Positions 6,624 through 64,000 are shown, counted from the first letter of the stretch. The stretch: 64,000 bases of DNA from Schmidtea nova (GCA_044892505.1 CM097882.1:262446001-262510000), one strand, 5' to 3'. Notes: generated by a model not told the origin, from the letters alone. Translations and numbers: made by a program.

Positions 6624-9600
6624 CAGCTTCGAATGGTTCCAAGTTGAAGTATGAAGTCCCAGCGAATATTGTTTTAGGGCAAAATGGTATTTATTTTTAT
6701 TTTAAATATATTTTTTTTAATTTAAAATTTAAGAAATTCGACAAGTTAAATCAAATTTATTCAGACCGATAGACCAACGTGGACGCATTTTTCCCGCTGA
6801 TATTGATGCCGAATATACCAATGGTAATTTATTAATTAATATTAGATATTTTTATTTTAGAAATTATTTTAGAAAGTAATGACGAATGTAGAGAATCGTT
6901 GAAACAATTTAATAATAATGATGAAGATATGCCAAAGAATTCGGAGGAAATATATAATATTTCGGATGATGATGATGATATTTTGTATGAAAATGAGTCT
7001 GATGAATGTAAGTTTTTATTCTATTTTTATGGATCTCGACGCTTGTTAACTTTTAACGTCGAATCCCATAATATTAATCAAATTGCTGTCACAGAAAAAA
7101 TTTTTGTGCGGTTAAATAAAGAAATTATCAAAATGGGGAACGTAAAAATTCAATTCACCCTTAATATTGAATTTGAAAAAGATGGAGTCTTTAAGAACGA
7201 ATTTTGTCCACTAAAGCTGAGATCTTTTCAGATAATTTCTTAATAGAATGCATTAGGAAATTAAATAATAAAATAGAAAATTTTACACAATGGGATAGCG
7301 GCTGGATTGTTAATAAAATAATGGAAATCCATTTTATTTTGACAAAAATTTCTACCATGAATCGATTATCTGGCCACGGACATTTTGAAACTCCTAACCC
7401 ATTAAAAAATAAAAGGGCAATTATAAATGTAAAAAATTCAGATGATTTATGTTTTATATATAGTGTTTTGGCTATAACAAAATATAATTTAATCGTTAAT
7501 AATCATAGTTCAGCCTCGAGTTATGTACCGTATTTAAATGATTTAGTTTTTGACCCTATAGAAGACTGTCCCATGAAACTATGCAATATCCCTAAATTCG
7601 AAAATAATATCCCTGGCTTAGCCATTAATGTGCTATCTTATAACCCTAAAGTGATTAGAAATAACAATATAGATATAGAAGATGATGATTATGTTCCTCA
7701 TCATTCACACTTGCAAATAATCCATCGCACAAAATTAAATCATTTAAACCCTATTTATCTTTTATTATTAGAAGATAAGGGAATTTTCCATTATACTGCA
7801 GTTATTAATCTGCAAAGGTTAATGACCAGTAGTATAAATAGTACCAATAGGATTCAGTCGATATGGTGTCCCAGATGTTTAAACGGTTTCCGTATTCAGG
7901 AAACCTTTGATAAACATTTTAATTTATATAAAAATAATCAAATTGGTGCAACCCTTTATAGTCTACCAAAAAATAAATATTTAGAATTTAAGGACTATTC
8001 CAAAACCGTAACCCCACCTTTCGTAATTTATGCTGACTTTCAGTCAATTTTACCGGGTGATGACAGGTATCACCAAAAACATTTACCCATATCAGCAGGT
8101 CTATTACTTTTAAATAATTTAAATAATTCAAAATCATATTATGAATTTATAGGTCTTGAATGTGTATTAGAATTTTTAAAGAAAGTGGAGGAAATTGCTG
8201 TTAAAATAGTACTCCCGTATTATGATTTATTCAGAAATACTCCATTAGGGCCTTTATCATTTGCTGAGCAGGAAGCTTTTAAGACTTGTTCAAATTGTTA
8301 TTTTGAAGTATGGTCTGTCTGATTGTTCATCTTGGGAATTAAATATTATTCCGACTACTACAGAGAAATTTATTTCTCTTATAGCTCACATTGATAAACT
8401 TGCTGTTAGGTTTATTGACAGTTATCAATTTGTATCAGAGTCTTTTGATAATGCGGTTAAAACTCTGTCAGTTTTTCCCTTAACATCTTCAGTTTTCACT
8501 GGTTCAATTATGAATTGTAAGGGTATTTTCCCTTTTAATTTTGCTACGAGTCTTGAGGTCCTAGAATCCAATCTTGAATTGCCTCCGATTTGGGCTAAGG
8601 TGTCTGAGGCTGATTATTTACGAGCTCAACAAATTTGGACTGAAAATAATTGTCTCAACTTGTTAGACTATATGAAGGTTTATCTAAAATTGGATGTATT
8701 TCTTCTAGCGGATTACTTTCAACAATTTCGAGCTAAGTCCATTGCTCACAATGGCTTAGATCCCTTAAATTTTTATGGTATTCCCGGTATGAGTTGGGCA
8801 TCTGATTTGGTGACTTTGAAGGAACCCATTGAACTCCTTCAACACATGGAAATGTATAATTTCTATGAGGGAGGAATACGGTGTGGTTTGACGTTCGTCA
8901 ACAAAAAGTATGTAAAGACTGATGATGACACTGAGCTTTTATATATAGATATTAATAATCTATATGGTTGGGCTCTTAGCCAAAATTTTCCTTTTGGTGA
9001 TTTTAGGTGGGTACATAATGATCTTGATAATATCTTGACCGAATGCATGTCGACGGATATTGATGATCTTTCATATGGTTACACTATGGAAGTTGACATT
9101 AATATTCCAGAAAACTTGCATGTGTTTTTGTATGATTTTCCTCTTGCTCCGGAAAAGATGCACCCACCATTCTCGAAAGTTGAGAAGTTAATGCTCACGC
9201 ATTATCCGAAGTATAACTATGTTATACATTGGAGACTTCTCAAGATGTTTGTTTCTCTTGGGGTTCAGGTAGTAAATATCCATAGAGCGATTAGATTTAA
9301 GCAATCGAAAATCTATAAGGCTTACATCGATACGAATACTCAGTTAAGAGCAAACTCTACCAATAAACTCGATAAAAATTATTTTAAACTCCATAACAAT
9401 AGCCTATATGGTAAATCCGTCGAAAATCTGAAAAAACGGATGAATTTGAGATTATGTAATTCATCTGAAAAGATGATTATATATGCTTCAAAGCTGTCTT
9501 TCAGAAAGCCCATCAAAATTGATGACGATCTGATTGCAGCACATCTGAATAAAGATTTAATATGCTTAGATAGACCTAGTTATATCGGTCAAACGGTACT

Positions 9601-10283
9601 AGCTGCGGATGTATCAGCTGCAATATATTGAATTGCAGAAATATAGGGACCTCTTTGATTGTAAGATAGGAATTGTCGCCGGCGACACTGACTCGTTCTT
9701 TCTTGAGGTTAGGCACTGTAAACTTGATGTTCTCTTACCAGCTATGATTTCTGATGATCTTTTAGATACATCAAACTATGATCCCAACCATCCATTATAT
9801 TCACGACGTCTCGACTCTGGGTTAGGGAAATTTAAGGATGAAAGTAAAGGTCATAGATATGAGGAATGGGTTTTCTTGCGTCCTAAATGTTAAAGTTTTC
9901 TTGGTGATACTGAATATAACAAAGCCAAGGGGATTACACTTGATGAGACTGAAATAAAGCATCAATCTTATCTTGACTGCTATCTAAATGACCGGATAAT
10001 AACTGTTCCGCAAACGCGTATAGGAACTAAAAATCAGCAGCTTTATACGATAAAAAATACAAAAATAGCTCTTAGCAATAATGACGACAAGCGCGAATGG
10101 GTGGGGAGAAATGCAAGTCTCGCATTTGGTCATTATTTAGGAGTCAATGCTAGAACCTATTACGATAACATTCCACCGAATCAATTACCGGATGAATTAC
10201 CAAGTCAAATCAATGAGTCAAATAACTATACCGATTATCCGTACGATTTCGGTGAATGGGCTGATCCCTTTGAAAAAACTTAA
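6624..10283 (+). pseudogene. polB: Protein-primed family B DNA polymerase of Polinton, with spliced N-terminus and multiple lesions
   Basis: SGWIVNKI, IINVKNSDDLCFIYSVLA, YADFQS (Exo I), RFIDSYQF, YIDINNLYG (motif A), KLHNNSLYGK (B), GDTDSFF (C), KAKGI, DDKR, LAFGHY. Frameshifts near 7205, 8300 and 9610; TAA at 9891. 5' exons 6624-6686, 6734-6823, 6873 onward. Confidence 0.93.
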
Positions 10284-55360: not shown

Positions 55361-56070
55361 TTAATACTATAACTCTTTGGATAAGCATAAGGGAACCCAA
55401 CACAAATAATGGTAAAATCAATACTGACACCTAATTCGTTTTTGGTTATTCGGTAAACATCATAAACGTAGCGTTGACAGAAAGTGCACAGAACTTCGTT
55501 TTAGTGTTCTGTAATCATGGCAGACATGACACCATTCCCTTATTTCTATTGTTTAATTTGATCACATTGTTTTTTACAATTTCAGAAACTCCTAAAAGAA
55601 GCTGCTGGGTTCATGGAGGGGTTAGATGAAAAATGTTCTAACAATGACTAGGGATCCCTCATCCATGATCATGCATAAAATTGCAATCTTACACTCAAGC
55701 GCCCTTGATTATTTCCCTATATAATCAAGTTGGTGATGCGCAGGGTGGTTAAACAATGATGGGCAGGTGAGCACTATCGCTAGTACTACTCCCCATTTAT
55801 GTTTACGGGTTCATAGCTGCCGTTAGAAGGACTTATGCTTTAATCATCTACTTATGTATTCCGCGTTAATCTTTCCGAAAATTTATTTTTATCATTGCTC
55901 AGTCTGCGAGAAGAATTTCATCGAATGCTCGCCTAATTATTTAATTATCTCTATTTGATATTTTGTAAAATGAATTTATACTTTTGTTCTATCTTTATCT
56001 AATCATTGGTAAAGTTAATTAAATCAATTTAAACGAACGATAAAATTCTTAAGTCAATACAACAATTTAT

Positions 56071-56667
56071 TTAATTTTTAATGAGTTCGGTAAAAACTCC
56101 CGCTGGAGGAAAAATCTCCGTCAATAATGCCTCCTCGGTCATCTGATGTAGACCATCGACTTGGCTTTGTAGTTGCTGGGCAAATAATTTTCTCTGTCTC
56201 CGCCGTTTCTGCCCAATACGCTTGCGTTTCTGGTGCGCATTTGCCGTTGAGGTGGTTGGATTTGCTGCAGGAGCCGGCTCATTTTGGTTTTCACTTAGAT
56301 CGGCGACATCCGTGCCAATGGAATTTACAGTCTTCTTTTCGGATGTCCAAGCTTGGTACGTAACCGGACGGATTTGCTCTCTGAGCTCTTTCTCAATATA
56401 TGAGGCAGTTACGGAATGGAGACATTTTCGGAGTTCTATCTTTGTAGCCTCCCATTCCATTTGATAATCGGCTGCAGTCCGCTGGGCGCGCTCGGTTTTA
56501 CTGATTTGCTCCTTCATTCGGGCCGGAGCAAACCAGCTTTTGCGCAAGTATGCGATCTGTGCCTCTGCTTTGATCAATTGTGCCTTGAGGAGACCCAATT
56601 CTTTATCCTGGGCTCTCCGAATCCGCCACATCTTTTCCAATTCTTTCTGCATCAAATCGGGGTTCAT
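56071..56667 (-). CDS. Cassette protein B: coiled-coil protein with basic C-terminal NLS-like stretch (198 aa)
   Basis: Intact ORF with TTATAG|A ATG acceptor and QKRKRIGQKRRRQRK; homologous to the relic at 38565-39005. Confidence 0.7.
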   Translation of the reverse strand: MNPDLMQKELEKMWRIRRAQDKELGLLKAQLIKAEAQIAYLRKSWFAPARMKEQISKTERAQRTAADYQMEWEATKIELRKCLHSVTASYIEKELREQIRPVTYQAWTSEKKTVNSIGTDVADLSENQNEPAPAANPTTSTANAHQKRKRIGQKRRRQRKLFAQQLQSQVDGLHQMTEEALLTEIFPPAGVFTELIKN

Positions 56668-56845
56668 TCTATAATTTATTTAGGATATTTACTCTATGAT
56701 TTAATTATATGAAAATTAAAATCTGATCATAGGATTATTAGGTCACGAAGGTGAACTATCAAAATGCGAAACAAAACTCAAAAAACAAAAATTCACTAAT
56801 GAACTATAATATTTTAATACAATTTCAACATTTGTTAATCAGTTT

Positions 56846-57325
56846 TCATCTCCGAAACAAACAATGCAATTCGTTGTTAATCGGTTTCTGACGCAGACGA
56901 GCCCAAGAGAATGAGGGTTGTCCTTTCTGGCACTCCTTGCCGAACGGTTTTCGTGGCAGGAATTTGTGCAGACCTAGTTGGCATAGCTCTCGACGAGGGA
57001 TATGCCCCCAATAAATTACACGGCTTGTCCGTCCATCTGTGTCCTTGATCAGTACGACAAGTCGGCCAAATTTGTTCGAGTACGGCCTTTGAGAAATCGG
57101 CCAGTTCGGTCCTCCTCGATAGAGTATTTGGTCGTTCCCTCCTGTCCATATTGAGAACGGGCATTTTCGGCCAAACCCATGTCGCCACTTATATATCTGG
57201 CAATTGAGGGTTCGCAATATCGATGCCGGTAGATCCTTGAGCTGTGAAATCTTTCCATTCTGTATATTCCTTTGTTCCACATTCCGTAGTTGAGTTAATT
57301 GATTCCTAGGTTCAGCTGTCGACAT
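56846..57325 (-). CDS. Cassette protein A: uncharacterised 159-aa protein
   Basis: Intact ORF with ATATAG|ATG acceptor; conserved with two divergent copies in the window. Confidence 0.7.
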   Translation of the reverse strand: MSTAEPRNQLTQLRNVEQRNIQNGKISQLKDLPASILRTLNCQIYKWRHGFGRKCPFSIWTGGNDQILYRGGPNWPISQRPYSNKFGRLVVLIKDTDGRTSRVIYWGHIPRRELCQLGLHKFLPRKPFGKECQKGQPSFSWARLRQKPINNELHCLFRR

Positions 57326-58337
57326 CTATATTACATTTATTGGATATAAAATATATGCGTTAAGGGGGAAATTCGTTGATAATTTAATTATACTGTATAT
57401 GATCACAAAAGTTACTTAAAAATAAGATTAATTTGATTTCTCTCCGCCGTGATCTACCACGGTCGGAATAAAGAGTTCATAATTAGTCCTGTGCTATATA
57501 CAGCATTCAGGAATTTTCAAATTTAATCAAGATTTCCGCGCTATATACAGCGGTCGGATTATAACTTGGGAACCGCGCCATATACGACGATCGGCCTATT
57601 TTTAGTAACTAATTTAATTTGGATTTTCCGACGCATTCCATCGCGATCGGAATTTATCGATATTAAAATTTTGTAGGCGAGATGCTGATTCCGAATGAAA
57701 TCGGACTTTGGACTACGTTGGATTTTCTCATTTCAGCGAAATTATTCAAATTTAATTTTATTTGTTGCTCACTGTTTTTCCATGCGAGAGGTTCCATTTC
57801 GATTCAATCGACAAAAATTTAAATGATGAGTATGCCCTACCATGGGGTGTCCCTCCTTATCAATCCGCCCTCCGCAATCTCCCTATTTGGCCCTCGACCT
57901 CCGTCCGTTGTGCAACCCAGAATTAAATAATTAGTAAATGGTCTGTACTAGACTCAAAATTCAATCAAATTTTCTAAATGAAATTCCACATCTAAACTAA
58001 ATAATAAAAAGGTTGAACCGCCATGTGAGACCCTGAGGCCCCACAACGACGACTCGGACTCCCTCGCCGCGTGAGCAGCATAGGAAGTATAGCTATATGC
58101 ATTAAAGTGTCAATAAAAATAATCAATGAAAAAAATAAAATGACGTTTACATATAAAATTCTAATTAAATAAAAATCATGGGTACATCATATAAGATAAC
58201 ATAAAAAATTACTTCCGTACTTGAATGTGTGGTTCCTTGTATGAAATTCGGTTCTTTCAAAAAATTACTCAAATCAAAGTTTAGTCTTGATTGTGAGTGA
58301 AAAGGTAAAACGTCTGTTGTTGTGATTTTTGGATCGG

Positions 58338-58372
58338 TATTTATACTGATCCGTCTGGTTGGATTGACCAAT
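58338..58372 (-). promoter_or_regulatory. CCAAT plus TATA promoter upstream of the two-gene cassette
   Basis: CTGATTGG (58368-58375) and TATAAATA (58338-58345) on the minus strand; candidate donors at about 58212-58220. Confidence 0.55.
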
Positions 58373-58927
58373 CAGGATCAGGCCGTCCTTCAAAGTATTT
58401 TTATTATTTTATTCTAATCTAAACATTATTTTGTTTCCTTTTCCGGTTTCTTGCTGGGTGGTCCTGATTTTTCAAATAATTAATTAATTATTTGCACTAT
58501 TATTTTATTTAATTCTATCTTTTCTTATTTCAGGCCCCCCTTTTGCGGTTGTTTACCGGTTTATTTTCAAAATTTCCTTTTACTGAAAATTTATCAATTA
58601 TTATTTGTCGTTTTATTGTTATTTTTAATTTGTTTTTCTTGCTGTTTTTATTTTTATTATTTCTTTATTGTTTCGTGCTTTTGTTCGTTTTGTTGTGTTT
58701 TTTAGGTGATTTGGCGGGCCCAACATCACCCGGGGACCCCTAAAATTGCGTCCCGCAATTAATTATACATAAATACTTATATTCATCATCCATAAAAAGT
58801 TTTATAAAGTTATACATGCAAAGAAAAATCACATAAGGTGATCGAATTTATACATATCATAAAGTTTGTCATTAAATAGTCAAAATGTAATGATTTGTCA
58901 CAATAGTTCGATAAGTTATCATAATGT

Positions 58928-59497
58928 TTATACAATTTGTTCGATCGTCTGGCTCGCTTGGGGTTGAGTTCGGGTCCTCTCGTTGATTATTTGTAGCTCG
59001 TAGTGGGTTTGGATGTGGTTGAGATGGCTCCTTATTCGTCTTTGAGCTCGGTTATCTCGTCTGGAGGTTTGGTTGTAGATTTTCTGCTTTTGTTTTAGGA
59101 TTTTTATTCTATATGAGGCAATTAGGATTGTGATTGCGATGATAGTTGTGCTGACTGCTAGGATTATGATGATTGCTATGATCCATTTTTCTTGATATTC
59201 TATTTCAGCTTGGGATAGGCTTTTTATGGGCTCTCTACCTTCTCTCAGGATTTTTCGGGTTTCCTTTAATTTCAGTTGTTGGTTACCGAAGATTTGTTGG
59301 ATTTGATGATCTTGATTGTAGGGGTATTTCTGTCGGAATTCGTTGATTTCTTTAATTACTTCTTCGATTAGGCTGTCTACTTTCTGGTAGATTCTGTCGG
59401 GTAGAACTCGTAATTGGGTTTCGGTTAGTTGTAGATCTTCTCTCTGTAAGGTAATGGTTGTTAACCATAGGAGTGTTGCTATTGCGAGCTTTCTCAT
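58928..59497 (-). CDS. Type I membrane protein (signal peptide, helical ectodomain, TM, basic tail; 189 aa)
   Basis: MRKLAIATLLWLTTITLQ signal; WIIAIIIILAVSTTIIAITILIASY TM followed by RIKILKQKQK. First ATG is 59497 (the track start is a GTG). Confidence 0.7.
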   Translation of the reverse strand: MRKLAIATLLWLTTITLQREDLQLTETQLRVLPDRIYQKVDSLIEEVIKEINEFRQKYPYNQDHQIQQIFGNQQLKLKETRKILREGREPIKSLSQAEIEYQEKWIIAIIIILAVSTTIIAITILIASYRIKILKQKQKIYNQTSRRDNRAQRRIRSHLNHIQTHYELQIINERTRTQPQASQTIEQIV

Positions 59498-59572
59498 CTC
59501 TTTTATACATCGGTCAATACAGCTTGACACTTTTTATTTTACAAAATTTATTTACACTTGGTTTTCGCACAT

Positions 59573-60634
59573 TTATACAAGGGTTTCGTTGGGTTCGTGA
59601 AAACCTTCGTCTTGAGGTTCCACCTGATTTATGGGGAGTGGCATCCATATTACCGTGCTCCTCCACATTTCGACTTCTTCTCGGTATGTGTGGGATATCT
59701 GGATCTCTTCATCTAATAAGTATTCCAGATAGTTCGCTTGTTCTGTTAGGGTTTCAATTTGTTTTTCTAGTTCTGCCAATTTTTTCTCTCTCTCTTCCTT
59801 CTCCATCATTTCGGTCACTGCTGCTGTGATACTTGTTTCTTTTATTGGTGTTGGTTTTTCTGCCAACTTCTTTCTCAGTTCTTCGTTTTCTTTTGTCAAA
59901 TTTGTTATGTTCTCTTCATAACTCTGCCTCGTTTCTTCCAGTCTTTCTTTAGTTCTTTTTAATTCTATTTTCTTCTGGGTGATCACTCCTTGATATCCAT
60001 TTATGTCTCTTTTCATGTTTTCTTCCTTGTGATTCCACATTCCGGTCAGCATACCTTTTAATTGTTCTTGATTGGCTAAATCTTCTCCCATTCTTCGTAC
60101 TTGATAAGTTAATTCTTTTATTTTCTTGGCTTGTTCTCTGATAAATTGTTGTCTTTTCTTACTCCATACTTTATTTGACGCTTCTTGACTGATCTTTTGT
60201 CCTAATTCCTCTTTTAATTCATCGATCTCTTTAAACAGTTTCCAATCATCGCTGTACACTGTTCGTTCTATTATCTCCCTTGCTTCCTTGTAAGAGTCTT
60301 TTGCCTCTTTCTTCCAATATCTTGCTTGTTCTGTGATTGACTGAATCTTATGGTCTGTTTTTATTTGTTGTCTATCCCTATCCTCTCGTCGCTCTTTCAT
60401 CATCTCTTTGTAGTATTCGTTTTGTTGTCTTAGCAGTTTGTAGACTTCTTCTATTTTTTCTCGACTTCTTTGATTCGTTTTCTCGGCTTCTCTTAGTGCT
60501 TCGGTTTGTCTTTCTAATTCCTCCTGTTTTCGATAATAGGCATGAATCCATCTCCCAATCCGCTCCATGTGATTTCTGATCATTTCGTCTTGATGTACGG
60601 TTACTTCTTGTAAGGTTACCTCTATATTTCCCAT
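59573..60634 (-). CDS. Long coiled-coil protein (353 aa, SMC/myosin-tail-like composition)
   Basis: Intact E/K/R/Q-rich heptad ORF with TTATAG|AA ATG acceptor. Confidence 0.75.
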   Translation of the reverse strand: MGNIEVTLQEVTVHQDEMIRNHMERIGRWIHAYYRKQEELERQTEALREAEKTNQRSREKIEEVYKLLRQQNEYYKEMMKERREDRDRQQIKTDHKIQSITEQARYWKKEAKDSYKEAREIIERTVYSDDWKLFKEIDELKEELGQKISQEASNKVWSKKRQQFIREQAKKIKELTYQVRRMGEDLANQEQLKGMLTGMWNHKEENMKRDINGYQGVITQKKIELKRTKERLEETRQSYEENITNLTKENEELRKKLAEKPTPIKETSITAAVTEMMEKEEREKKLAELEKQIETLTEQANYLEYLLDEEIQISHTYREEVEMWRSTVIWMPLPINQVEPQDEGFHEPNETLV

Positions 60635-60745
60635 TTCTATAATTACAGATAAAAAGAATATTTAATCAGTTTTTATTTTTATTGTTTTTGATTATTTGTT
60701 ATTTCATATTGTTTCTACATTTTATTTACATGGTTATTTCCTTCA

Positions 60746-62122
60746 TTACGCCAACCATCCTTTTTTATCCGTTTTCTCATGCCTCTCCATCTCTATGTAT
60801 AGCGTGTCTGCATATAGTCGCTCCCACAGGTTTTCCTTCCTTATAAACATTGGTTCTCCTGCTGCTAGTCCGCATTCCGTTGTTGGTTTTTCACTTGTAC
60901 TCGTATGTTTGTCTGTTTCAAAGAACTTTTCTACTGGTTTTACCATACTTTTGATTCTTATAATGACTCCTACTTTCAAGGGCCATTCTATTAGGTCATC
61001 GTATTCTCCTTTACATAGTGAGAAGAATATTGACACGTGTGTTCCTTGTCCTCTTCCGTCTCCATTTGGGTATACTTTCAATCTTATTTTAGCCCCGTTT
61101 TTCCATAAGTAAAATGGTGGGCTTATTACTGCTGTTTTCGTCATATTTCTGGCTTCTGCTAGTTTGTCTCTGAACTCTGTTACTTTCCATAGGTAAGGTG
61201 CGATTGGTAAGTCCCTTCTTTCGTCAATTTCTCGTATTAATTGATTATATTGTATTTTCATTCCTTTTCCTAATTCTTCTATGGCTATTATTTTCTTTTC
61301 CATTCTTTCGCGAGTTAGTTCAAACTGCTCTCTTGTTTCTAGTAGTAAACTCATCATTATCTTATGTGATTCTACTTCTTTTTCTAATTTCTGAATTGTC
61401 CGTTCCGTTTCTTTAGTCGTTTCGTTTGTCATTTCCACATGCATTAGTGCTGCTTCTTCTAGATGTTGTTGCATTGTTTTTCGCGTCCGCTTTTCCTTGC
61501 ATCCATGCTTGTTATATGGGCATTCTCTTGGCCTTTCGGTACATAGTTTCCAATGTTCATGTAATTTTATTTCTTCTGTTATTTCGCAATTGTTTGGACA
61601 TTTACTTACATATTGTCTGCATACTTTCTCCTCTGTTATATTCAAGTGTTCCTCTTCGATTTTTCTCCTCGTTTCTCGAGTTTCACAATACTCGCATGCG
61701 ATTTCTTCTTCTTTACATTCTTCCTTGTGTTGTTCTCTCTTCTTTAGAGTTATTGTCTGTTGGCATTTCTCGCATTCGGCTCTCTTTTCCTCGCATTTTT
61801 CCATATGGTTTTCCAGATTGCTTATTTGTCCTTGCCATGTACAAGGTGTATTTACGCACTCCGTTGTGGTGCTCATAATTTCTCTTTGGGTTGCTTTGTC
61901 CGTTCTAGTTTCGTCCAACACTATTCTTCCCTCTTTACATTCTGGACATGTTGTTATTCCTGTTGCCTCTAATTCTTGTATACATTTTGTACATATTCTA
62001 CATCCACATATCGTTTGTCTGGGTTCTCGCAATAAATTATTACATTTTCCGCATGTGAGTCTCTTGCTCCATTTTCTGTTTTCTAGTCTCAAAATTTCGA
62101 TTATTCGTTCTTCTCTGTCCAT
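60746..62122 (-). CDS. TRAF: TRAF2/3-like adaptor: RING, TRAF zinc fingers, coiled coil, MATH (458 aa, intronless, intact)
   Basis: CGKCNNLLREPRQTICGCRICTKC..CPEC RING; CVNTPCTWQGQISNLENHMEKC fingers; YLWKVTEF..SPPFY..KIRLKVYPNGDGRGQGTHVSIFF..KGEYDDLIEWP MATH. Confidence 0.95.
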   Translation of the reverse strand: MDREERIIEILRLENRKWSKRLTCGKCNNLLREPRQTICGCRICTKCIQELEATGITTCPECKEGRIVLDETRTDKATQREIMSTTTECVNTPCTWQGQISNLENHMEKCEEKRAECEKCQQTITLKKREQHKEECKEEEIACEYCETRETRRKIEEEHLNITEEKVCRQYVSKCPNNCEITEEIKLHEHWKLCTERPRECPYNKHGCKEKRTRKTMQQHLEEAALMHVEMTNETTKETERTIQKLEKEVESHKIMMSLLLETREQFELTRERMEKKIIAIEELGKGMKIQYNQLIREIDERRDLPIAPYLWKVTEFRDKLAEARNMTKTAVISPPFYLWKNGAKIRLKVYPNGDGRGQGTHVSIFFSLCKGEYDDLIEWPLKVGVIIRIKSMVKPVEKFFETDKHTSTSEKPTTECGLAAGEPMFIRKENLWERLYADTLYIEMERHEKTDKKGWLA

Positions 62123-62215
62123 TTTCTACAATAATATATACATTCGACTTGTCATTTATTTTTTGATTTTTCTTGTTTTTATTTTTACATATTTACAGTT
62201 TTCCGCTTTATTTAT

Positions 62216-62572
62216 CTATGGCTCATTCGTTGAATCTGGTTCCGCTTCGTTGTTTAATCTATTTATTACCCAACTCATCCATCCTTCTTCGGATCCTTCT
62301 CTTTCTCCTCGTGTTAAATGGTTTATTTCTATTGCTTGTCTTTGATTGGTGTTGCTTATCGTTTGATTTTCTCTGGTGAGTTCAGTTATCGCTCTTTGTT
62401 GTTCTTCTATTCTGTGTAATTGTTCAAAACAGTTGTTATAACTTTCTGATAATAACATTTGTCTTTCCGCTAATTGGTTCTGTAATGAGTTGACTGTTCG
62501 TACTAATAAATCACATTGTGCCTTCCATCTCATAGCCATAGTTATTTCAGTTGTTTCGTCCTGTTCGGTCAT
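62216..62572 (-). CDS. Short coiled-coil protein (118 aa)
   Basis: Intact ORF with ATTTAG|AA ATG acceptor and heptad pattern. Confidence 0.65.
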   Translation of the reverse strand: MTEQDETTEITMAMRWKAQCDLLVRTVNSLQNQLAERQMLLSESYNNCFEQLHRIEEQQRAITELTRENQTISNTNQRQAIEINHLTRGEREGSEEGWMSWVINRLNNEAEPDSTNEP

Positions 62573-62696
62573 TTCTAAATTATATACATCATTTACTTTG
62601 TTTTTCTAGCTTTTTACAATTTTTATAATATCGATACCCATACTATTACGGTAATGCTTTGTTATTTACACTATTATTTACAGTCATAATCCGCCC

Positions 62697-63998
62697 CTAT
62701 ACCATCATTATCGTCTTTTCCTCGTATCGTTCTTCGTCTTCTATTTGTTTCCAGAATTCTTTACCTTTCGTTCTTCTTTGGAATTCTTGCTGTATCTCTT
62801 CTGGTATTTCTATTCTTTGCTTCATAATTTTAATATCTGGCCATTGTATGGCTGTCGCTTTGTTTCTCTTTCTGTATCTCCAATATATTATTATGCTTGT
62901 CGTCATTATCCCATATGCTATTAATATTCCTATACTGATTAATCCTATTACTGTTTTTCCACGGTTTGTTGCTTTGATTTTATTCTGATTCGCTTTTATC
63001 TCATTTTGGGTTTGAGCCTCTGGCTTCTTCTCCTTCTGTACTTGATTCTTGACTTTGTTCATTACTTCTTGTGTAGACCAATGGCGGTTTAGTAGTTGTT
63101 TGAAGTTATTTTCTTTTGTTCGGTTTTCCACGTTTCCTGGTTCGATCTGTTGTTGTAGTTTCTCTGAGATCTGATATAATCCGCATTCTGGTTTTTCTGA
63201 ACCTTTTCTAGTGAAGGTACATATCGCGTATGTCTTATTTACTTCCATTTTCTTTAATTCGACTTTTTCCTTATTCCCTGTTTCTTTACAGTGGGTTAGC
63301 TTGTCTTCTTCCCCTTCTGGGTTATGCTTTGTCCAACATATTCCTTTAACTGTCTGATCGAGTCCTGTTAATGTCAGAGTTCTTTCTGTCTTTGTTAATT
63401 CTTCTTCATCGAATTTCAGTATCTCTCCTTTTTGGAATGTCTTGCAATGCTCTATTCCCTCTTGGATTCCTCTCTCCCAGATACATATACTTCCTTCTTC
63501 ATTCATTTGTATTTCTTGTATTTCGATTTCCTTGTTTGTTCGTGATTCGTCGCTTGTCTGAACTTGGTATTCCTTCCTTGGTTCGTTGTATGTTCCCCAG
63601 CATAGTTTGTTGCTACTTGTTTTCCTTATTGTTATGGCCATTTGTTCTATTATTATTCCTTTATCGATACGTTTGGACATTGCTAGTATTAATGCTATGC
63701 ATACGCACTCCTGTTGGGGTAATATTCTTTCTCTCGTTTTATTGGTGCTTTTCTCTCCTTCTCCTGGTTTATCCGTTGTGTTTCTTATCTGAGTTGCTGG
63801 TTGATCTATGGTGTTTTTGATTTCTTTCTTTGTTGGTTTTACTCTATACCATTCGAGTCCAGGCGTTTCGTATTTTTGACATACGACTGTCTTAGGTAGC
63901 CCCGACTTCTTTTCCTTTCCTATTATGCATATCCTATGTATGATTCCTCTGTCCATCCCTTCTATTCGTACTATATCCTGGTCGGATTTTCTGATTAT
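62697..63998 (-). CDS. Type I membrane glycoprotein with FN3-like Cys-containing repeats; open to the window edge
   Basis: Frame open upstream of 63956 (IIRKSDQDIVRIEG). VRIEGMDRGIIHRICI and VELKKMEVNKTYAICT resemble FN3 E-F strands; N-glycosylation sequons; TM VIGLISIGILIAYGIMTTSIIIYW then RYRKRNK. Confidence 0.7.
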   Translation of the reverse strand: MIRKSDQDIVRIEGMDRGIIHRICIIGKEKKSGLPKTVVCQKYETPGLEWYRVKPTKKEIKNTIDQPATQIRNTTDKPGEGEKSTNKTRERILPQQECVCIALILAMSKRIDKGIIIEQMAITIRKTSSNKLCWGTYNEPRKEYQVQTSDESRTNKEIEIQEIQMNEEGSICIWERGIQEGIEHCKTFQKGEILKFDEEELTKTERTLTLTGLDQTVKGICWTKHNPEGEEDKLTHCKETGNKEKVELKKMEVNKTYAICTFTRKGSEKPECGLYQISEKLQQQIEPGNVENRTKENNFKQLLNRHWSTQEVMNKVKNQVQKEKKPEAQTQNEIKANQNKIKATNRGKTVIGLISIGILIAYGIMTTSIIIYWRYRKRNKATAIQWPDIKIMKQRIEIPEEIQQEFQRRTKGKEFWKQIEDEERYEEKTIMMV

Positions 63999-64000
63999 AC

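Follow-up and report, generated by a model that had tools for sequence, protein, structure and literature searches.

Giant Gypsy elements bounded by long terminal repeats (LTRs) are known from the planarian Schmidtea mediterranea, from which Burro1/GYPSM1 and Burro-2 to -4 have been described (PMC6431247). Their giant size, the position of Env inside the polyprotein and their coding capacity for MATH, RING, coiled-coil and ankyrin sequences are already published. Burro RNA has been reported to be abundant in stem cells and controlled by PIWI-interacting RNAs (piRNAs) (PMC6884822, PMC8532177), and the Burro1-borne gene B-IAP is described as anti-apoptotic and protective of planarian stem cells (Lee et al. 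2026, as reported in PMC13465017). A 64,000-nucleotide (nt) stretch of Schmidtea nova DNA (GCA_044892505.1 CM097882.1:262446001-262510000; hereafter the window) was examined in the present study, in which a block of five open reading frames (ORFs) had been proposed, from the sequence alone, to be signalling and membrane cargo of a large mobile element (the original prediction). We estimate a probability of about 70% that this block is the 3' accessory region of a recent, multi-copy, 29.7-kb Burro-like Gypsy element, comprising the tail of its polyprotein and four genes that are under selection, expressed by RNA processing and directed at host signalling. The observation behind the original prediction is real and was rightly likened to Burro, but was partly misdrawn.

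An ORF scan of the window recovered five minus-strand frames of the same orientation between positions 58928 and 63998, all stop-free, uninterrupted and intronless, separated in 5' to 3' order along the block by 124, 93, 111 and 75 nt, exactly as first described. The first of these (frame 1, 62697-63998) is open at the window edge. The coding strand of the block contains 43.5-47.9% A, and the AT skew at 59-64 kb (-0.43 to -0.52) is the strongest in the window, the absolute value in the other 1-kb bins being at most 0.37. The A-richness noted at the outset is therefore genuine but not distinctive, as a skew of -0.27 to -0.54 extends across 59-80 kb (window numbering continued) and the bias is a property of the element's entire internal region. 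Neighbouring parts of the window carry hAT, MULE and pPolB frames (Pfam), which are pieces of DNA transposons and Polintons.

Extension of the sequence beyond the window placed the block in a 29,732-bp Gypsy LTR element with an internal region of 23.5 kb. Its 3' LTR (55603-58725, minus strand; 3,123 bp, TG...CA) is adjoined by one copy of an AAGC target-site duplication (55599-55602), the second copy of which lies just outside the other LTR, and the 5' twin is found 26.6 kb further on (82212-85334), differing from it by five mismatches (99.84% identity). The internal order is a 153-aa RING ORF (Pfam, 1e-11), followed by Gag CCHC, Env, protease, reverse transcriptase (RT), RNase H, integrase (IN) and ankyrin, so that the gag and pol genes sought beyond position 64,000 are indeed present. 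Env is a Monjiviricetes-type fusion glycoprotein (PF24664, 6.8e-66), located directly upstream of the protease in one frame (Pfam). A genome search with the TRAF domain, in which the best 150 of 2,463 candidates were scored, returned matches of 93-100% identity in 150 of 150 cases, indicating at least 150 copies, and the LTR pairs of 11 out of 11 elements are 99.78-99.98% identical, two tandem elements among them sharing an LTR. Judged by these identities, the family is large and young, and the window copy was recently inserted. The block is thus clearly a multi-copy, LTR-bounded part of an element with a Burro-like layout, not a single-copy locus flanked by host genes. The two tandem copies (L006/L007, G000:C3:133.80-133.86 Mb) stand head to tail with one common LTR, and TRAF matches are similarly spaced (~27-33 kb) at C1:171.9 and C1:590.8-590.9 Mb.

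The ~30-kb size with an internal region of up to 25 kb, giant Gag-to-IN polyprotein, in-frame Env and additional MATH/TRAF, RING and ankyrin sequences are features of the Burro-like clade. Also in common with Burro, according to the text of PMC6431247, are the multiple copies, three CCHC knuckles, an Env between Gag and protease, the succession of RT, RNase H, integrase and ankyrin, and coiled-coil (Smc-like) coding next to MATH/TRAF and RING, which agrees with the statement in the original prediction that Burro elements carry extra MATH- and SMC-like ORFs. Unlike in Burro, where MATH lies inside a 4,873-aa polyprotein (PMC6431247), a complete TRAF is encoded here by a separate downstream gene, and the polyprotein frame is longer (5,658-5,686 codons). 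When the final 5,267 residues of a naturally open frame were searched for MATH, the best E was 0.13, and Pfam found none in the Gag piece. Pfam also detected no BIR in the window copy, whether in the polyprotein pieces, the RING ORF or the ORFs downstream; because MATH lies outside the polyprotein and no BIR was found in these, the element is not Burro1 itself. The RING ORF upstream of gag is comparable to Burro1 B-IAP (PMC13465017) except for the undetected BIR. SUMO-, BCL2- and dUTPase-like segments, found in the literature by HHpred, were not recovered by Pfam or by phmmer against PDB. A Burro-like element of Dugesia tigrina also has MATH/TRAF in a separate accessory ORF and a polyprotein above 5,000 aa, but its TRAF ORF is located upstream, whereas that of the present element is the second of four downstream ORFs (PMC6431247). 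The post-integrase FN3 membrane units and spacer signals presented below are unmentioned in the text of PMC6431247, and literature searches on Burro, on retrotransposon trans-splicing and on LTR elements with FN3/TRAF revealed no account of them. The papers covered likewise do not describe the 3' accessory genes or how downstream ORFs are expressed; the figure of PMC6431247, Grohme 2018 and Lee 2026 may show the ORFs.

Frame 1 had been interpreted as an FN3-like membrane protein in its own right. The FN3 fold and transmembrane helix are upheld as predictions, but frame 1 does not stand alone as a gene and instead forms the C-terminal end of the Gag-Env-Pol polyprotein, because other copies keep one open frame through to position 62697. 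For comparison, the 20 copies ranking next to the window in DNA similarity to the TRAF gene were used; in seven of these no stop interrupts the frame across the whole 15.8 kb fetched until the one equivalent to 62697, where it ends. Ten copies picked as least broken were fetched in full, seven of which have one frame of 5,658-5,686 codons (~5,490 codons from the first Met). In the window copy, three in-frame stops and one frameshift interrupt the polyprotein, and an in-frame stop past the window edge severs frame 1 from the remainder. Programmed read-through at the internal stops was ruled out, since other copies are open at these positions. The frame opens ~190 codons upstream of the first Met (L002:5166-5735, minus strand), in a segment with an omega of ~0.45 (mild selection) that includes an in-frame AAA ATT GAG common to a second family, and the polyprotein may perhaps start at a non-AUG codon. 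An AUG supplied by a spliced leader (SL) to a Met-less start was ruled out, the candidate acceptor being out of frame in some copies.

After the ankyrin and an acidic region, the polyprotein ends in two tandem tail units, each built from a signal-like stretch, a beta module and a second short hydrophobic stretch, after which come further modules, a transmembrane helix and a short tail. In the second unit (62697-64000, minus strand), three FN3 domains are predicted, the first of which is followed by a short hydrophobic helix; a transmembrane helix lies at ~62885-62957, and the unit closes with a ~60-aa tail, in which WPD[IV]K, the acidic tyrosine motif W.QIEDEE.YE and a hydrophobic C-terminus ending in Val are conserved. 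An FN3 fold in the ectodomain is predicted with moderate support from a structural match (Z 7.8, root-mean-square deviation 2.3 A, 71 residues aligned, with FN3-containing chains filling almost all of the 50 rows), Foldseek hits to three-FN3 fibronectin fragments (6e-6) and a phmmer hit to a protein whose repeats look FN3-like (1.7e-5); an Atlas score of 0.85 for FN3 was treated as a lead only. No homologs of the tail were found at E<=0.001 among near-length proteins, and P0011, a low-complexity repeat from the phmmer search, was disregarded. The last I-x-M-L-R motif, of putative protease type, is situated at the integrase/ankyrin border, with none in the tail; because of this, we propose that host signal peptidase would free the FN3-domain membrane units from the end of the polyprotein.

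Four genes follow on the minus strand. These encode a 118-aa coiled-coil-like protein of no known family (62216-62572), a full-length intronless TRAF of 458 aa (60746-62122), a second coiled-coil-like protein of no known family with 353 aa (59573-60634) and a predicted type I membrane protein of 189 aa (58928-59497). Full-length ORFs are present in 21, 20, 17 and 20 of 21 copies, respectively. Omega was estimated by simple site counting of variants common to at least two copies, with a transition weight of 4 and no phylogenetic model, giving values of 0.17, 0.17, 0.08 and 0.26 for the four genes, 0.25 and 0.44 for the first and second tail units, and 0.02 for Env, protease and RT, all of which are below neutral (p 2.5e-4 or less). 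By this measure the four downstream genes are functional and held by purifying selection.

A second giant family was recognised by its MATH domain (three copies fetched). It shares the RING ORF, carries a single tail unit where the present element has two, and keeps all four downstream genes in unchanged order, with identities of ~50% (118 aa), 51% (TRAF), 54% (353 aa) and 34% (189 aa) and spacers of 123, 90, 89 and 73 nt. On the evidence of gene order and purifying selection, the block is maintained in the manner of a viral accessory region. Between the two families, Env is 97% identical, RT 90%, protease 74% and ankyrin 44% (L001 versus L073-L074), the high Env value suggesting a recent module swap or unusual constraint. 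A deleted second-family copy (L076:4071-7940) has Env-protease fused in frame to the TRAF MATH via microhomology, and therefore shows how MATH can move into a polyprotein. Smaller env-bearing sister families of 15-17 kb (five copies fetched; L049:7779-8927, L053:7773-8927, L058, L062) have Env inside a ~3,360-aa polyprotein and no block. At its end this polyprotein carries another predicted membrane protein, which terminates in ETFV, belongs to no Pfam family and did not resemble the FN3 units in a profile comparison (probability 2.6%), and the families have one downstream ORF of 468-482 aa, with its own CCAAT/TATA-like stretch and acceptor, for which no family was found.

The full TRAF called in the original prediction comprises RING, TRAF zinc fingers, a coiled coil and a C-terminal MATH domain (MATH 6e-21, zf-TRAF 5e-7, Pfam), as do TRAF2/3/5-type adaptors, from which it differs in being intronless and in having Cys in place of the RING His. 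The N-terminus matches RING-zinc-finger structures of TRAF6/TRAF2, the best PDB matches of the protein are TRAF3, TRAF5 and TRAF2 (5e-22 to 8e-20), and identity to the best full-length non-planarian relatives is 24-29%. Cys occupies the RING His position in the element TRAF and in all three host-type loci with a readable RING, as opposed to His in seven of seven outside relatives, and this common Cys therefore suggests exchange with the host TRAF expansion. In a MATH-domain tree of 16 rows (several host loci, P0006, P0008 and P0009 having been removed by a motif filter), element TRAFs form their own long-branched clade (100/99), and the tree singles out neither a donor nor a direction of transfer. 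Host-type MATH/TRAF genes cluster densely near the end of contig C2 (G000:C2 ~405-455 Mb; L077-L079, L083-L086), some being intronless and some in tandem arrays.

Among the other products, the 353-aa protein has a conserved C-terminal DEGFHE and an E-T-x-V end; no homologs were found at E<=0.001 among near-length proteins, and Atlas gave generic coiled-coil neighbours only. The 189-aa protein has, from hydropathy, a signal-like N-terminus, an ~85-aa ectodomain, one transmembrane helix and a basic tail. As a small accessory transmembrane protein with a basic tail it resembles, by description, the sORF2/FAST-like fusogens of the MDG1 group (bioRxiv 2025.03.14.642691), but the latter are ~70 aa, encoded upstream of gag and belong to elements without Env, unlike the 189-aa protein with its signal-like N-terminus, its ectodomain and an Env in the same element.

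Each spacer opens with a TGTA doublet and closes, in most cases, with an acceptor-like motif. Spacer 1 (62573-62696, 124 nt) has TGTAAATA at +14 and +26 after the stop and a TTTAG acceptor 2 nt before the ATG; spacer 2 (62123-62215, 93 nt) has TGTA at +18 and +26 and TTGTAG 3 nt before the ATG; spacer 3 (60635-60745, 111 nt) has TGTA at +15 and +26 and TTATAG 2 nt before the ATG; and spacer 4 (59498-59572, 75 nt) has TGTA at +16 and +29 and AAG before the ATG, all on the minus strand. Across the two families, 8/8 spacers have one TGTA at +14 to +20 and another at +26 to +29, with 15 occurrences per family versus two in shuffles, and all five sense-strand TGTAAATA of the 29.7-kb element fall within the 403 nt of spacers. 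Among copies, TGTA sites are variable at 1/60 positions and acceptors at 0/10, compared with 42/333 for other spacer sites (p 0.011 for TGTA versus other spacer sites) and 96/315 for fourfold sites. A YAG is found within 7 nt of the ATG in 7/8 spacers versus 134/630 and 147/658 of all ATGs (~21%) in the two elements, and the full UUNYAG acceptor, a motif also found in cis acceptors, in 4/8. One copy (L012) is without a 3.6-kb GT..AG segment, joining CAG|GT in the polyprotein to TAG|AAAATG of the 118-aa ORF, as would be left by reverse transcription of spliced RNA. Because of the TGTA doublets, the YAG acceptors and the L012 deletion, we consider the block likely to be expressed as separately processed messenger RNAs (mRNAs), by cis-splicing or operon-like SL trans-splicing; each downstream gene would be translated from its own mRNA using the acceptor before its start codon.

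Several observations weigh against this overall reading. The comparison copies were chosen as the best TRAF-gene matches, a choice that favours intact ones, and the block is not essential for the clade, since small env-bearing sister families have spread without it. Pfam finds no FN3 in the tail, both tail structure models are of low confidence (mean predicted local distance difference test scores of 46 and 47) with Z under 8, and the topology, read from hydropathy with basic residues after the last helix, is ambiguous because the second short hydrophobic stretch follows the first FN3, between FN3 domains. For expression, the pre-ATG triplet of spacer 4 is AAG in most copies, TAG in a subfamily and CAG in the second family; a single spliced-looking copy stands against 91 unspliced ones, and its donor is not conserved among copies; dedicated junction searches of the genome found no junction at the TRAF or 353-aa acceptor; and AATAAA is weakly enriched in the spacers of one family (p 0.025) but not in those of the other (p 0.32). 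The TGTA doublet is moreover unspecific to intercistronic processing, because a near-identical pair of host-type TRAF genes (L078/L079), which no further gene follows, has the same post-stop doublet. According to PMC5068929, planarian poly(A) signals lack an upstream UGUA, and TGTA as a usual poly(A) upstream element was set aside on that account. Given this absence and the L078/L079 doublet, we read the doublets as probable 3' untranslated region (UTR) signals, possibly sites of Pumilio type. The Pumilio element has the consensus TGTA(A/T)ATA. The sole hit of the junction searches belongs to a diverged subfamily (81% DNA identity) with CAG for TAG and is not a junction. Alignment of four sequencing runs of unstated type to L046 yielded contigs, those displayed showing no splice-like joints, and was counted neither for nor against. 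Internal deletions in L009, L017, L019, L021 and L076 were rejected as splicing traces, as they join at short microhomologies and not at GT..AG.

How the 5' ends would be supplied admits of three accounts. To the first, alternative cis-splicing of a short LTR leader exon to each acceptor as in complex retroviruses, with mRNAs ending in the 3' LTR, we give slightly less than even odds. The LTR contains a promoter-like stretch with an ATTGG box and TATAAATA (58200-58380, minus strand; its function is presumed), the sole LTR part alignable with the second family, after which candidate GTAAT donors lie at ~58268 and ~58212, and in both families such donors are located 80-145 nt after the LTR TATA box. 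A YAG likewise precedes the ATG of the 5' RING ORF and of both LTR-borne ORFs, the sole junction seen (L012) is in cis, and the retroelement Cer1 makes an accessory protein from a spliced mRNA (PMC10309623). The account requires introns of up to 25 kb and a choice among seven acceptors, while the donor flanks differ among copies (GAA/GT versus AAC/GT). No leader-to-ORF junction was found in the genome, though such RNAs would be without the primer site and rarely copied.

An operon-like mode, with 3'-end formation in each spacer and addition of a flatworm SL in trans at the next acceptor, is a tentative second candidate. Flatworm and nematode SL operons likewise have co-oriented genes ~100 nt apart with an acceptor before the next start, but are composed of host genes with SL-bearing reads, whereas the present cluster lies inside a retroelement, to which an SL would be added (PMC8629364, PMC12582326). 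In length, all eight spacers (73-124 nt) agree with the peak of ~100 bp described for trans-spliced genes of a free-living flatworm (PMC8629364) and fall within the <=300-bp spacing criterion, the UUNYAG acceptor used with it (PMC12582326) being complete in the four spacers mentioned above. The conserved 3'-UTR-like motif that opens each spacer would not be needed by a purely cis-spliced, 3'-coterminal set, and flatworm trans-splice acceptors are often also used in cis (PMC12582326), which fits L012. Set against this, genomic junction searches found no SL-bearing retrocopy, poly(A) hexamers are not clearly enriched in the spacers, and spacer cleavage would destroy the genomic RNA and so would have to be partial.

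Reading of unspliced RNA by reinitiation or internal entry, or transcription from small internal promoters, with YAG and TGTA serving otherwise, appears unlikely. The acceptors are invariant in 21 copies and kept across families, and visual inspection of the 73-124-nt spacers revealed nothing resembling a promoter. Ribosomes reinitiate poorly once a very long ORF has been translated. The fixed distance of the TGTA doublet from the stop could nonetheless be a translation-coupled signal, the longer spacer of the small sister families contains a CCAAT/TATA-like stretch, and in MDG1 elements unspliced RNA is found together with accessory ORFs (bioRxiv 2025.03.14.642691).

As to function, processed accessory genes of this kind would probably adjust ubiquitin, NF-kB or cell-death signalling of the host cell in favour of the element, and the most likely role, considering also the RING ORF, the ankyrin repeats and the reported B-IAP of Burro1, is tuning of these pathways in cells where the element is active. 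Together with the 5' RING protein and the ankyrin domain, the TRAF would act as an adaptor or E3 towards host proteins; the immune or apoptotic role originally proposed is suggested by domain content. DEGFHE in the 353-aa protein resembles the phosphorylation-independent DDG-phi-x-D ligand of beta-TrCP (PMC10487276). At the level of motifs, both this likeness and that of the Val ends to PDZ ligands are leads. The Val ends in question are those of the FN3 tail and the 353-aa protein. Cell-to-cell spread, also attributed to the block, can be accounted for without the block genes, because the element encodes an Env-like fusion glycoprotein of its own. A more elaborate picture, of an enveloped retroelement with its own operon combining SL-resolved genes, Pumilio-type control, a TRAF E3, a constitutive beta-TrCP decoy, PDZ-ligand proteins, FN3 receptor mimics and hundreds of TRAF genes, strikes us as doubtful.

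The original prediction paired the TRAF with the cytoplasmic tails of both element-encoded membrane proteins, and we regard a self-contained module of this kind as improbable. The TRAF and both membrane proteins are retained together in two families, and the MATH receptor-binding region is intact by alignment to TRAF3. The consensus motifs for TRAF binding are P-x-Q-x-T/S/D, (P/S/A/T)-x-(Q/E)-E and P-x-E-x-x-aromatic/acidic. None of these occurs in the 189-aa protein or in the final tail, whose IPEE stretch is replaced by LPKE/LPKA in the second family, and neither cytoplasmic tail conserves a canonical motif between the two families; the small sister families, moreover, have a post-integrase membrane protein and no TRAF. 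A predicted complex between the TRAF domain and the final tail scored 0.00 (made without alignments) and was counted neither for nor against. That the genes are recently captured host genes carried as neutral passengers is scarcely credible, and is refuted as a description of their present state by purifying selection on all four, by gene order kept at 34-54% identity in the second family and by the separate element TRAF clade, although the Cys-for-His RING also found in three host-type intronless loci makes host capture plausible as the origin of the TRAF.

Returning to the preferred reading of a selected 3' accessory region, the present analysis shows the accessory genes to be under selection and gives exact acceptors for use with planarian RNA data. 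One targeted literature search found no case of retrotransposon trans-splicing for accessory or subgenomic genes, and SL trans-splicing here, if true, would be a retroelement strategy that we have not found in print. Some 240 or more MATH matches belong to two dispersed families, at least 150 to the present one and ~90 rows with a ~476-codon frame to the second, of which the three fetched were all element-borne. Such element-borne copies are relevant to the TRAF expansion reported in planarians (PMC6109357) and to the targeting of TRAF and ankyrin mRNAs by piRNAs (PMC6824462); were the operon account true, element copies would account for several hundred TRAF genes in such genomes.

Further features were noted in and around the element. 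A 202-nt stretch separates the last ORF from the 3' LTR (58726-58927, minus strand), and its last ~40 nt beside the LTR, nearly identical in the second family, are the probable position of the plus-strand primer. Two ORFs lie within the LTR on the minus strand, one of 198 aa (56071-56667) with a TAG acceptor-like motif before the ATG and one of 159 aa (56846-57325) with TAG immediately before it. Both are under purifying selection (omega ~0.14-0.25), have no Pfam match and are absent from the second family's 1.7-kb LTR; distant relatives of the two (29% and 37% identity, the latter for the 198-aa ORF) adjoin another element. Two non-coding tandem repeat arrays with units of ~29-33 nt are located between the RING ORF and gag (L002:6300-6950). 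Just past the 5' LTR is a Polinton/Maverick-like element (88.5-106 kb, continued numbering) with 508-bp inverted repeats and long ORFs, and fragments related to it, with a pPolB frame, occur in the window at 1-2900 and 7195-9631.

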